Shown here in pieces: positions 60,442 through 62,295 of a stretch of DNA of 64,000 bases (the first letter of the stretch is position 1; every line of letters begins with the position of its first letter). The DNA lies in the NCBI RefSeq assembly GCF_003334815.1, contig NZ_QOWO01000009.1. One strand, written 5' to 3'. The position numbers were made by a program, and so were the translations under genes. The stretch is from Escherichia coli. Its GTDB lineage: Bacteria; Pseudomonadota; Gammaproteobacteria; Enterobacterales; Enterobacteriaceae. The notes below the pieces were generated by a model. The model made no database searches and had not been told where the DNA came from. It saw nothing but the letters and a program-made list of their open reading frames with translations.

Positions 60442-62295
60442 ATGAAAATGACTTTGCCGTTTAAACCCCATGTGCTGGCGCTAATTTGCAGTGCCGGGCT
60501 TTGTGCCGCCTCTACCGGGCTATATATAAAAAGCCGCACAGTGGAAGCGCCTGTGGAACCGCAATCGACACAACTGGCTGTGTCTGACGCTGCCGCGGTT
60601 ACGTTTCCTGCAACGGTTTCCGCACCTCCCGTAACACCCGCCGTCGTCAAATCCGCATTCAGCACTGCACAAATAGATCAATGGGTCGCGCCCGTCGCGC
60701 TGTATCCCGACGCCCTACTTTCGCAGGTGCTGATGGCATCAACCTATCCGACAAACGTTGCTCAAGCAGTGCAATGGTCGCACGATAATCCACTTAAACA
60801 AGGCGATGCTGCTATTCAGGCGGTATCTGACCAGCCGTGGGACGCCAGCGTTAAATCACTGGTGGCATTTCCACAATTGATGGCATTGATGGGCGAAAAC
60901 CCGCAATGGGTGCAAAACCTGGGCGATGCTTTTCTGGCCCAGCCGCAGGACGTGATGGACTCGGTACAGCGATTGCGGCAACTGGCGCAACAAACCGGCT
61001 CGCTGAAGTCATCAACCGAACAGAAAGTTATTACCACAACGAAGAAAGCTGTACCGGTAAAACAGACAGTCACGGCACCCGTCATACCATCCAATACAGT
61101 TTTAACTGCCAACCCCGTCATTACAGAGCCGGCAACAACCGTCATTTCCATTGAGCCCGCCAATCCTGATGTGGTCTATATTCCCAACTACAACCCAACC
61201 GTGGTTTACGGGAACTGGGCCAATACTGCGTATCCGCCGGTTTATCTGCCACCACCAGCCGGAGAACCGTTTGTTGACAGCTTTGTACGCGGATTCGGCT
61301 ATAGCATGGGCGTTGCTACCACGTACGCACTATTCAGCAGCATCGACTGGGACGACGACGATCATGACCATCATCATCATGACAATGATGATTATCATCA
61401 CCACGATGGCGGTCATCGTGACGGTAATGGCTGGCAACACAACGGCGACAACATCAATATCGACGTCAACAATTTCAACCGTATCACCGGTGAGCATCTT
61501 ACTGATAAGAATATGGCATGGCGGCACAATCCAAACTACCGTAATGGTGTGCCCTATTATGATCAGGATATGGCAAAGCGGTTTCATCAAACCGATGTCA
61601 ACGGCGGAATGAGCGCCACGCAATTACCTGCCCCAACGCGCGACAGCCAGCGTCAGGCGGCAGCAAATCAGTTTCAGCAACGAACACACGCCGCACCAGT
61701 CATTACACGAGATACCCAACGTCAGGCAGCGGCACAGCGGTTTAATGAAGCTGAACACTATGGGAGCTATGACGACTTCCACGACTTCAGCCGTCGCCAA
61801 CCACTGACCCAGCAACAAAAGGACGCCGCTCGTCAGCGTTATCAGTCCGCCTCGCCTGAGCAGCGCCAGGCAGTTCGCGAGAGAATGCAGACTAACCCGA
61901 AGATCCAGCAGCGAAGAGACGCAGCGCGTGAGCGCATTCAGTCCGCCTCGCCTGAGCAGCGCCAGGCGGTTCGCGAGAAAATGCAGACTAACCCGCAGAA
62001 CCAGCAGCGAAGAGACGCAGCGCGTGAGCGTATTCAGTCCGCATCACCAGAGCAGCGCCAGGTGTTTAAGGAAAAAGTACAGCAGCGCCCACTGAATCAA
62101 CAGCAACGTGATAACGCCCGCCAGCGTGTTCAATCGGCATCACCTGAACAACGTCAGGTTTTTCGGGAGAAAGTTCAGGAGAGCCGCCCACAACGTCTAA
62201 ACGACAGTAACCATACTGTCAGGCTGAATAACGAGCAACGGTCAGCAGTATGCGAACGTCTCTCTGAACGTGGAGCAAGAAGACTGGAAAGGTAA
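60442..62295 (+). CDS. yacH: uncharacterised secreted repeat protein YacH (His-rich tract and 4 x 32-aa tandem repeats)
   Basis: Track ORF 60442..62295, 617 aa, signal-like N-terminus MKMTLPFKPHVLALICSAGLCAASTG; DDDDHDHHHHDNDDYHHHDGGHRDG tract; repeats DAARxRxQSASPEQRQ... Confidence 0.85.
   Translation: MKMTLPFKPHVLALICSAGLCAASTGLYIKSRTVEAPVEPQSTQLAVSDAAAVTFPATVSAPPVTPAVVKSAFSTAQIDQWVAPVALYPDALLSQVLMASTYPTNVAQAVQWSHDNPLKQGDAAIQAVSDQPWDASVKSLVAFPQLMALMGENPQWVQNLGDAFLAQPQDVMDSVQRLRQLAQQTGSLKSSTEQKVITTTKKAVPVKQTVTAPVIPSNTVLTANPVITEPATTVISIEPANPDVVYIPNYNPTVVYGNWANTAYPPVYLPPPAGEPFVDSFVRGFGYSMGVATTYALFSSIDWDDDDHDHHHHDNDDYHHHDGGHRDGNGWQHNGDNINIDVNNFNRITGEHLTDKNMAWRHNPNYRNGVPYYDQDMAKRFHQTDVNGGMSATQLPAPTRDSQRQAAANQFQQRTHAAPVITRDTQRQAAAQRFNEAEHYGSYDDFHDFSRRQPLTQQQKDAARQRYQSASPEQRQAVRERMQTNPKIQQRRDAARERIQSASPEQRQAVREKMQTNPQNQQRRDAARERIQSASPEQRQVFKEKVQQRPLNQQQRDNARQRVQSASPEQRQVFREKVQESRPQRLNDSNHTVRLNNEQRSAVCERLSERGARRLER
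61822..62205 (+). repeat. four in-frame 96-bp tandem repeats inside yacH
   Basis: Units begin at 61822, 61918, 62014 and 62110; units 1 and 2 are near-identical at nucleotide level; each encodes DAAR(E/Q)R(I/Y/V)QSASPEQRQ(A/V)... Confidence 0.85.

Follow-up and report, generated by a model that had tools for sequence, protein, structure and literature searches.

Length-variable acidic tract and 32-residue repeats in the low-complexity C-terminal half of YacH, a probable cell-envelope protein of the DUF3300 family in Escherichia coli

Several described systems resemble parts of yacH. The exported DUF3300/DUF2950 gene pair of Proteobacteria, a pair with no assigned function (PMC4653623), includes proteins that resemble YacH in their basic, low-complexity tails and whose export signals have a putative counterpart in the hydrophobic N-terminus of YacH, but YacH differs in its missing partner and in SPEQRQ repeat units found only in Escherichia. 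CpxP, Spy and ZraP are periplasmic, Cpx-linked helical hairpins with a (S/T)-x-x-Q-rich helix start that is also seen in YacH, where, by contrast, four tandem 32-aa units are mounted on an unrelated core. The MLVA marker ms11 of the E. coli/Shigella typing scheme (PMC8215070) is, like the yacH array, an in-frame, head-to-tail 96-bp unit with strain-variable copy number, whereas the yacH units are diverged from one another (55-90% identity) and hence change infrequently; identity of the two loci was ruled out, with neither of the ms11 primers taken from that scheme present at ≤3 mismatches in the window, that is, the whole 64-kb stretch of DNA analysed here. Finally, the His-rich loops of periplasmic ZnuA-type proteins are, like the His/Asp tract of YacH, which would also face the periplasm, disordered and acidic. 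The PDB sequences matching the tract were His tags and the ZnuA loop, the latter being the only non-tag sequence to align; this likeness is compositional (E 6.7), with no common fold or domain, and YacH differs in having no upstream metal-regulator site and a tract whose length varies widely between strains.

The open reading frame under study is yacH (b0117), as the earlier note had named it, encoding 617 aa and differing from the MG1655 gene by 3 nt and 2 aa (Table 1). None of the 5,426 complete E. coli genomes searched lacked the gene. A Pfam scan matched aa 75-333 to PF11737 (DUF3300) over practically the full profile (E 1.5e-78, model positions 2-227 of 227), and YacH carries the family motifs APVALYPD, YIPNYNPTVVYG, INIDVNNFN and WRHNPNYRNGVPY, the last being the counterpart of a consensus, WxHxPxHRxGVPYRD, that lies beyond the Pfam model. 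In an alignment of 110 family sequences (A1), W133, Q176, R179 and A182 were invariant and many columns were ≥90% conserved. The block downstream of the His/Asp tract fits the family consensus VxINVNRxN ... WxHxPxHRxGVPYRD; it was modelled with confidence by AlphaFold (pLDDT 78-94 over aa 341-380) and has a dN/dS of 0.03 relative to a divergent Escherichia allele. The family is large: at E ≤ 0.001 it comprises 9,579 clusters of relatives at 50% identity. As stated earlier, no function is assigned to the protein: NCBIfam gave no match, Pfam gave DUF3300 and nothing else, and the search of solved structures for a relative of the DUF3300 core returned no resemblance. The feature examined here is the low-complexity C-terminal half of this probable cell-envelope protein.

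Table 1. Features of the yacH locus, in coordinates of the 64,000-nt window
Feature	Position	Strand	Basis or remark
Divergent acnB-yacH spacer, yacH promoter region	60088..60441	.	acnB start ~60087
yacH CDS, DUF3300 family protein (617 aa + stop)	60442..62295	+	ORF, Pfam PF11737, comparison with MG1655 b0117
N-terminal export signal or signal anchor, aa 1-30: MKMTLPFKPH and a 20-residue hydrophobic stretch	60442..60531	+	
Pro/Ala/Val-rich linker, aa 31-74, disordered, fast-evolving	60532..60663	+	pLDDT, dN/dS
DUF3300 core: helical subdomain (aa 75-184), T/V/P linker, strand-rich part to W303	60664..61350	+	
His/Asp tract DDDDHDHHHHDNDDYHHHDGGHRDG, aa 304-328	61351..61425	+	CAT/GAY triplet runs and 21-nt unit
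Post-tract block, aa 329-395, motifs INIDVNNFNRI and WRHNPNYRNGVPY	61426..61626	+	family consensus match
Two degenerate 23-aa TRD(S/T)QRQAAAxxF helices, period 69 nt	61636..61743	+	motif matches at aa 399 and 422
Repeat unit A, aa 461-492, DAARQRYQSASPEQRQAVRERMQTNPKIQQRR	61822..61917	+	orthologous unit in other alleles
Repeat unit B, aa 493-524	61918..62013	+	89.6% DNA identity to A
Repeat unit C, aa 525-556	62014..62109	+	
Repeat unit D, aa 557-588, most divergent	62110..62205	+	55-62% DNA identity to others
Basic C-terminal tail, aa 589-617 and stop, with degenerate motif copy NNEQRSAVCERL	62206..62295	+	net +3, pI 11.2
Bidirectional terminator hairpin, convergent yacH/lpd: A-run, AGCGGC/GCCGCT stem, T-run	62307..62336	.	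read from sequence

YacH had been described as secreted. The signal-like hydrophobic N-terminus is there, with the highest hydropathy window of the protein at aa 11-29 and a helix predicted by AlphaFold at aa 9-25, but cleavage is uncertain: the 20-residue hydrophobic stretch of enteric YacH proteins is followed by LY(V/I)KSR and contains no AxA site, so that it may act as either a signal peptide or a signal anchor. DUF3300 relatives from other proteobacteria carry either a lipobox or a signal peptide of the classic, cleavable kind (ALAQ-type sites; PMC4653623). The enteric N-terminus would fit a membrane anchor at least as well as a signal peptide. The adjoining linker is poorly modelled (pLDDT 44-55), evolves rapidly between E. 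coli alleles (dN/dS 0.5-0.7) and differs in both length and sequence among enteric genera.

Four in-frame 32-aa repeats had been reported at 61822-62205, and exactly there we found four 96-nt units arranged head to tail, each with an invariant SASPEQRQ at an exact spacing of 32 residues. Tandem Repeats Finder scored the best-conserved 2.3 copies at 386, and the repeat search recovered four copies in register (family D1); the array is far beyond chance. The heading under which it was first described, four near-identical repeats, holds for one pair of units: A and B share 86 of 96 nt (89.6%), with a longest exact in-register run of 30 nt, just as the body of that description had said, but the remaining pairs are at 55-75% (75% for B and C, 67% for A and C, 55-62% for D against the others). 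AlphaFold modelled units A-C as helix pairs (pLDDT 77-90), and each 32-residue unit is predicted to form one helix-turn-helix pair; unit D fell below pLDDT 50 and the tail was likewise of low confidence. Upstream of the array, two TRD[ST]QRQAAA blocks 23 aa apart, missed earlier, are 74% identical at the DNA level (repeat family D3) and correspond to modelled helices at aa 400-414 and 423-437; some strains carry a 45-aa duplication of this region (P0001). The degenerate motif copy in the tail, NNEQRSAVCERL, was also absent from the earlier list. The YacH end, ...ERLSERGARRLER, is conserved among Escherichia alleles. The repeats carry a charge of +13, and the Gln/Arg-rich C-terminal half as a whole about +18 (pI 11.4). 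Only Escherichia has the 32-aa SPEQRQ units; a search of aa 452-617 against 5.8 billion proteins returned E. coli/Shigella YacH fragments alone and brought up no other family with such units, a result that is not exhaustive, since full-length YacH proteins were missing from it.

The number of units had been predicted to vary between strains, and indeed E. coli alleles with two, three, four and five units exist. In evenly spaced samples of 60 genomes drawn from the 5,426 complete ones, about 54% had four units, about 44% three and 1-2% two, and a single five-unit protein was found. Three-unit alleles come in two different architectures, the common one being A-C-D, with unit B absent, and the other, represented by alleles L004 and L005, being A-B-(C/D), with unit C fused to D; in the two-unit allele L003, unit C is fused to unit A. 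The deletion junctions fall within the conserved SASPEQRQ-coding core, and all four copy numbers recur within one N-terminal allele lineage. Unit number has likely changed by unequal recombination or slippage, and the outcome is a set of stable alleles of two to five units with occasional change, rather than a rapid switch; the divergence of the units accounts for this stability. Concerted evolution was rejected because units are orthologous across alleles and not homogenised within one. Every E. coli length variant examined keeps the reading frame, and with units of 3, 21 and 96 nt the locus offers no phase-variation switch of the contingency type; the only known yacH frameshift comes from a single Salmonella isolate, in which 8 bp are deleted (PMC10048834). 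The gene is nevertheless disrupted at times, by an internal stop (L001) or an IS1 insertion (H1), and is therefore dispensable in some strains. Searches matched yacH at two to four places in a genome, most likely through off-register alignments of the array rather than a second copy; three-unit alleles mostly gave one place and four-unit alleles two or three. The array is thus a genuine coding repeat polymorphism in a known gene with no assigned function.

The His/Asp tract is even more variable than the 32-aa repeats. Its location had been given as about 61350-61440 and is borne out at 61351-61425; that it is the more variable element had been overlooked. The tract is an insert between the conserved W303 and G330-W331 of the family alignment, its 25 residues include 9 His and 10 Asp (net charge -9), and it is modelled as disordered (pLDDT <50 over aa 310-334). 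In E. coli it occurs in 23 length variants spanning 17-39 aa, and all changes are multiples of 3 nt, consistent with in-frame slippage as the source of the differences between strains. An H/D/Y/G-rich insert occupies the same position in every enteric orthologue fetched, and a long His/Asp insert is present in all Enterobacteriaceae examined. Its composition, though not its sequence, is kept in Escherichia, Citrobacter, Pseudescherichia, Pseudocitrobacter, Kluyvera, Enterobacter and Rahnella. A Cupriavidus orthologue has merely DWHDHD at this position, and only 12 of 111 representatives of the DUF3300 family are His-rich.

This tract had been proposed to bind divalent metals, a proposal that would make YacH a secreted metal binder in metal homeostasis, with the tract as its site and a functional link to the nearby copper oxidase gene cueO. 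The density of His and Asp, the retained position of the insert in enteric orthologues and the compositional match to the ZnuA loop speak for such a role. Support did not extend beyond composition, however: searches of Pfam, NCBIfam and PDB sequences gave no homology to a characterised metal-binding domain, and boxes for Fur, Zur, CueR and NikR did not exceed shuffled controls in 60088-60441 (a consensus scan, which weak or atypical sites could escape). Nor is the proximity of cueO evidence, because the MG1655 annotation places it five genes off, at a distance of 5.8 kb, with the two genes in different transcription units. A tract whose length ranges over 17-39 residues in alleles that are nearly identical does not look like a defined site, most DUF3300 proteins have no tract, and the papers found connect yacH to CpxR, Rob and cationic peptides, none to metal. 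What would tie YacH to metals is thus the residue content of the tract, and we consider a dedicated role in metal homeostasis unlikely.

A different view takes the tract and repeats as inert, slippage-prone filler whose length drifts neutrally while the DUF3300 core alone matters. Both lengths are hypervariable, the tails of other genera have independently acquired unrelated repeats (~17-aa TPEQRQQRQEAVQQR in Pseudocitrobacter, NPTAxQQQRRENAKSHLQ in both Kluyvera and RIT691), pLDDT is low for the tract, unit D and tail, and yacH is occasionally a pseudogene. Yet no E. coli length variant examined departs from the reading frame, dN/dS values of 0.07-0.20 indicate purifying selection on the repeat region, SASPEQRQ is invariant in the four units, the insert remains acidic and His-rich across genera in spite of its changing sequence, and units A-C are modelled as confident helices, which together make pure filler a rather doubtful explanation.

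Polymorphism at yacH extends beyond repeat length. Comparison of the window with strain L004 gives 98.4-99.2% identity for acnB, the spacer and lpd but only 90.7% for the first 900 nt of yacH; dS reaches about 1 in sharp patches at aa 75-100 and aa 191-240 that adjoin stretches of 97-100% identity, and L005 is a visible recombinant. The yacH alleles are therefore mosaics, much more diverged than the flanking acnB and lpd. Such a pattern, together with the coexistence in E. coli of two three-unit architectures and many tract variants, might be expected if YacH were exposed on the envelope and targeted by phages, colicins, antibodies or host peptides, with diversifying or frequency-dependent selection keeping it polymorphic, and the published effects of cationic peptides described below would agree with this. 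The low dN/dS (0.03-0.2) argues otherwise, as does the most divergent patch, aa 75-100, where differences are almost purely synonymous, pointing to imported segments rather than to selection for amino-acid change. Surface exposure would moreover have to be assumed, and the papers searched show no phage or colicin link; we regard this explanation as improbable.

Another difference between Escherichia and its relatives lies downstream of the gene. Of 73 DUF3300 loci with enough downstream sequence, 67, including every non-Escherichia enteric locus, have a DUF2950 gene directly after the DUF3300 gene and in the same orientation, and the partner was confirmed as PF11453 (E 3e-78). At yacH in the window this two-gene unit is not present: tblastn detected no DUF2950 remnant downstream, E. 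coli and E. albertii have neither the gene nor a remnant of it, and blastn found no DUF2950 match in the 5,426 E. coli genomes. With the yacH and lpd stops only 70 nt apart, there is no room for such a gene, and Escherichia has lost the near-constant partner of DUF3300 genes. The hairpin between the two convergent genes was not listed by a consensus terminator scan, possibly because its A-run pairs with its T-run and lengthens the stem. In some strains an extra 170 nt downstream of yacH resembles, by eye, a REP-type palindromic element.

Upstream, the true start of acnB lies at ~60087 (VLEEYRK...), in agreement with the MG1655 annotation, and the divergent spacer contains no match to the sigma-70 consensus. 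An RpoF holoenzyme site in this spacer has been listed by genomic SELEX (PMC5493296). Induction of yacH is CpxR-dependent (PMC9600279) and its expression is reduced in a rob mutant (PMC7537768); matches to the CpxR consensus in the promoter region were not above chance, and the best marbox/Rob candidate, with 3 mismatches, was not convincing. Protamine represses yacH and the deletion mutant survives protamine better (PMC9600279). The regulatory picture is inconsistent, since the gene goes up under NlpE overexpression and down with protamine (PMC9600279).

Control by CpxR raises the question of whether the repeats are diverged LTxxQ hairpins of the CpxP/Spy/ZraP type, YacH then being a Cpx-regulated chaperone or signalling modulator. 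The motifs are alike (ASPEQRQAVREKMQ in YacH against SLTEHQRQQMRDLMQ and LTPEQQAVLNEKHQQR in CpxP), phmmer gave 13.7 bits to CpxP, and each YacH unit is modelled as a helical hairpin. This homology, however, failed both the Pfam scan, in which the LTXXQ profile (PF07813) had no match in YacH at E ≤ 10, and the shuffle controls, where 98 of 2,000 shuffles equalled the real score against CpxP and Spy and ZraP were at shuffle level. With the idea largely refuted already at the sequence level, we hold it to be extremely unlikely.

The reading that we tentatively prefer, while rating it short of probable, is that YacH is an envelope protein in which the acidic loop and the basic tail serve as charge arms on the DUF3300 core. 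The mechanism is inferred from composition. A periplasm-facing domain would be held by an N-terminal membrane anchor, the likelier case in enterics, or else be released through a signal peptide, making YacH a two-pole polyelectrolyte mounted on a conserved core. The acidic His-rich loop could bind cations in a multivalent, low-affinity manner, be they divalent metals, cationic peptides or, near pH 6, protons, and the basic helical tail could attach to anionic components of the envelope (for instance peptidoglycan, periplasmic glucans or the head groups of phospholipids), with tract length and repeat number tuning the charge and reach of the two arms. The response to CpxR and Rob, the down-switch by a cationic peptide and the better survival of the deletion mutant in protamine would fit charge arms of this kind. 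Against them, both the tract and the repeats accommodate large changes in length and are entirely different from one genus to the next, as would be neutral low-complexity sequence.

A bolder extension casts YacH as a membrane-tethered periplasmic charge sensor or buffer that Escherichia rebuilt after losing DUF2950, with selection by host antimicrobial peptides, phages or colicins, rather than neutral slippage, maintaining the mosaic alleles of 2-5 units and 17-39 tract residues. The acidic loop would capture cations and cationic peptides while the basic tail docked on anionic envelope polymers, and the length-variable arms would set how the envelope handles polycations; we think this combination has little chance of being correct as a whole.

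In-frame repeat variation in an envelope protein that awaits characterisation would not, by itself, surprise a specialist. yacH is, however, one of the genes still lacking a function in the best-studied bacterium, and its mosaic diversity forms an island the size of one gene, flanked on both sides by strongly conserved housekeeping genes. Its natural allele series, with 2-5 units and loops of 17-39 residues, can be swapped into a single background, and the published cationic-peptide phenotype provides a readout. Escherichia also offers a natural experiment in which DUF3300 operates without DUF2950. Because the family is large, exported, nearly always paired with DUF2950 and without a solved structural relative, a functional handle on YacH would reach well beyond E. 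coli.

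yacH is a known, yet uncharacterised, gene that was found in all 5,426 complete Escherichia coli genomes (5,426/5,426), and the copy in the window differs from that of MG1655 (b0117) by 3 bases and 2 residues. The single Pfam match of its protein was DUF3300 (PF11737, E = 1.5e-78, aa 75-333), and an NCBIfam scan of YacH gave no match. Because the annotated start of the neighbouring acnB (VLEEYRK...) lies near 60087, ~51 codons inside the mechanical ORF call, the acnB-yacH spacer is really 354 nt rather than 201 nt; a binding site of the RpoF (sigma-28) holoenzyme has been reported within it by genomic SELEX (PMC5493296). 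The hairpin downstream of yacH was not listed by a consensus terminator scan, perhaps owing to lengthening of its stem by the A-run and T-run. Disrupted copies were observed in strain SJ2D (internal stop at codon 100, TCA to TAA, annotated as a pseudogene) and in strain SW071611 (IS1 insertion); this occasional inactivation indicates that the gene is dispensable in some backgrounds.

Features of the yacH region in the window and segments of the AlphaFold model of YacH
Feature	Position (nt)	Strand	Residues	Description
acnB, mechanical ORF call	57490-60240	-		
acnB-yacH spacer	60088-60441			
yacH ORF	60442-62295	+	617 codons	between acnB (-) and lpd (-)
His/Asp tract	61351-61425	+	304-328	DDDDHDHHHHDNDDYHHHDGGHRDG
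Two TRD(S/T)QRQAAA blocks	61636-61743			weaker copies of the repeat helix motif, upstream of the units
Units A, B, C, D	starts 61822, 61918, 62014, 62110; end 62205	+	32 each	SASPEQRQ invariant in all four
yacH stop to lpd stop	62296-62365			70 nt
Bidirectional terminator hairpin	62307-62336			convergent yacH and lpd; A-run, AGCGGC/GCCGCT stem, T-run
Core			67-300	pLDDT mostly above 90; helical subdomain (75-184), then strands
Model segment			341-380	pLDDT block means 78-94
Tract in the model			310-334	pLDDT below 50
Units A-C in the model			457-547	six helices, two per 32-residue period; pLDDT 77-90
Unit D and tail in the model				pLDDT below 50

Re-reading the window confirmed the coordinates and sequences given in the earlier note for the tract and the repeats, but its title of four near-identical 96-bp repeats is overstated: units 1 and 2 share 86/96 bases, and the longest uninterrupted in-register identity spans 30 nt, whereas the other pairs share only 55-75% (units 2-3, 75%; 1-3, 67%; unit 4 versus the others, 55-62%). 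Tandem Repeats Finder detected just 2.3 copies, whereas a register-based search recovered all four. A further weak copy of the repeat helix motif lies in the tail (NNEQRSAVCERL). Among YacH proteins of other strains, the C-terminal half also shows in-frame duplications, one type of 17 and one of 45 residues.

The number of units varies among E. coli alleles from two to five, as had been forecast from the sequence. Two evenly spaced 60-genome samples, drawn from the similarity ranking of the 5,426 genomes, contained four units in 32/60 and 33/60 genomes, three in 26/60 and 26/60, and two in 1/60 and 0/60, respectively, the remaining genome of each sample (1/60) giving a very divergent or partial match. 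Fetched alleles confirmed in-frame proteins (553 aa with two units, 585-593 aa with three, 617 aa with four), and a five-unit protein of 648 aa is present in the protein database. The units are orthologous across alleles: K-12 carries A-B-C-D, and the common three-unit allele lacks B (A-C-D). In a second three-unit type, A-B is followed by a C/D hybrid, and in the two-unit allele an A/C hybrid precedes D; every junction is located within the conserved SASPEQRQ-coding core. Concerted evolution was rejected, since the units within an allele are not homogenised. A single allele lineage (≥98% identity over the first 300 residues) includes 2-, 3-, 4- and 5-unit proteins, and the changes are therefore recurrent but infrequent, a pattern consistent with unequal recombination, or slippage, involving units that have diverged, and with stable alleles rather than a fast switch.

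The His/Asp tract is a more variable element of YacH than the repeats. Across the 120 closest protein clusters, 23 distinct forms of 17-39 residues were seen between the conserved W303 and GW331, with a histidine run of 3-6 residues and zero to three DNDDYHH units. At the DNA level the tract consists of CAT and GAY triplets in a run, together with a 21-nt unit, which keeps slippage in frame; in a Salmonella isolate, the homologous tract has lost 8 bp (GATCATCA), a deletion that truncates the protein (PMC10048834). An alignment of YacH with 109 diverse DUF3300 members shows the tract inserted into a short loop, and only 12/111 full-length family representatives contain at least 6 histidines in any 20 residues. 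With one genome sampled per species, an H/D/Y/G-rich insert differing in length and sequence occupied this position in every enteric genus sampled (Escherichia, Citrobacter, Pseudescherichia, Pseudocitrobacter, Kluyvera, Enterobacter and Rahnella); Cupriavidus has just DWHDHD.

DUF3300 is a large family, with 9,579 clusters (50% identity) at E ≤ 0.001. The 110-sequence alignment showed conserved core motifs (APIALYPDxLLxQVLMASTYP, IxIEPAxPxVVYVPxYNPTVVYG, VxINVNRxN and WxHxPxHRxGVPYRD) and, beyond the core, a tail rich in arginine, glutamine and glycine. Again with one genome per species, the 32-residue SPEQRQ units were confined to Escherichia, where E. albertii and a divergent lineage of the genus have three each; elsewhere among the genera, the corresponding Q/R-rich tail has been expanded by short units of other kinds. 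Two Pseudocitrobacter loci carry a ~17-aa unit, TPEQRQQRQEAVQQR, two or three times, and RIT691 and Kluyvera carry NPTAxQQQRRENAKSHLQ three times. Tandem expansion in the DUF3300 tail arose repeatedly and independently across enteric genera. For YacH, purely neutral length variation is made less likely by three observations: the repeat region is under purifying selection (dN/dS 0.07-0.20), every length variant examined keeps its reading frame, and the insert is conserved in composition.

Comparison of the window with loci L001-L006, L010 and L011 (E. albertii) revealed that yacH is a gene-sized island of diversity with mosaic alleles. Against strain E23, DNA identity was 98.4% in acnB, 99.2% in the acnB-yacH spacer and 98.9% in lpd, and 90.7% over the first 900 nt of yacH. 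Divergence is concentrated in sharp patches of low dN/dS (aa 75-100, dS ~1.1 and dN 0.018; aa 191-240, dS ~1 and dN 0.17), adjoining stretches being 97-100% identical, and the yacH of strain 400625 is a visible recombinant of two allele types. The divergent patches look like segments imported from distant lineages. The searchable literature contained no mention of the yacH polymorphisms, the mosaic alleles or the DUF2950 loss described below.

Immediately 3' of the DUF3300 gene, on the same strand and with a gap of 4-20 nt in enterics, lies a gene for a signal-peptide protein, DUF2950 (PF11453, E = 3e-78). Translated searches found it in 67/73 loci whose downstream sequence was long enough, among them those of every enteric genus sampled other than Escherichia; exceptions were E. 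albertii, two Bradyrhizobium and one metagenomic genome. The pairing and predicted secretion were noted earlier in rhizobia, without a function (PMC4653623). E. coli lacks DUF2950: no remnant was found downstream of yacH, and the Citrobacter gene had no match in the 5,426 complete genomes. Strains E23 (L004, 2559-2799) and 400625 have ~170 extra bases between the yacH stop and lpd; a DUF2950 remnant was rejected as their identity, and by eye they resemble a REP-type palindromic element (…GCCGGATGCGGCGTAAACGCCTTATCCGACCTAC…). In E. albertii (L011, 7798-8543), ~750 bases that E. coli lacks are inserted between yacH and lpd, with a small ORF of ~85 codons apparent by eye on the opposite strand, whose start (MKAFLTTVVLTAAVFSGMAVAADP...) looks like a signal peptide.

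The AlphaFold model of YacH, built with the 110-sequence alignment, had a mean pLDDT of 72.6. Net charge is -9 in the tract, which has nine histidines, +13 in the repeat block and +18 in the C-terminal half (pI 11.4). In non-enteric relatives, a typical cleavable signal peptide or a lipobox directly precedes the conserved LDQ(L/M) core start. Enteric N-termini instead lack an AxA site and consist of MTLPFKPH, a 20-residue hydrophobic stretch, LY(V/I)KSR and a Pro/Ala linker of 30-50 residues, suggesting that YacH faces the periplasm, possibly on a membrane anchor, and is not freely secreted.

The metal role suggested in the earlier note derives from composition and is otherwise unsupported: scans including Pfam and NCBIfam gave no homologue among metal proteins, matches to the Fur, Zur, CueR and NikR consensus sequences in the 354-nt promoter spacer did not exceed chance, and cueO is five genes distant. 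The papers found concern CpxR, Rob and cationic peptides instead. NlpE overexpression raised yacH 3.9-fold in a CpxR-dependent screen, protamine (partly CpxR-dependently) and reportedly cecropin A repressed it, and its deletion improved survival in protamine (PMC9600279); yacH was lower in a rob mutant (PMC7537768), and in a uropathogenic strain a cathelicidin peptide caused slight induction (PMC6737244). At the motif level, the repeats resemble the LTxxQ motifs of CpxP and Spy, a likeness that failed a Pfam scan and shuffle controls.

Our comparisons establish the anatomy, polymorphism and evolutionary history of YacH, in which the conserved DUF3300 core would bear two charge-carrying accessory arms. 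As the likeliest reading, we tentatively propose that the acidic, histidine-rich, disordered loop may be a low-affinity binder of cations, protons or cationic peptides, and that the basic helical-repeat tail may bind anionic envelope polymers; length changes would then tune both arms.
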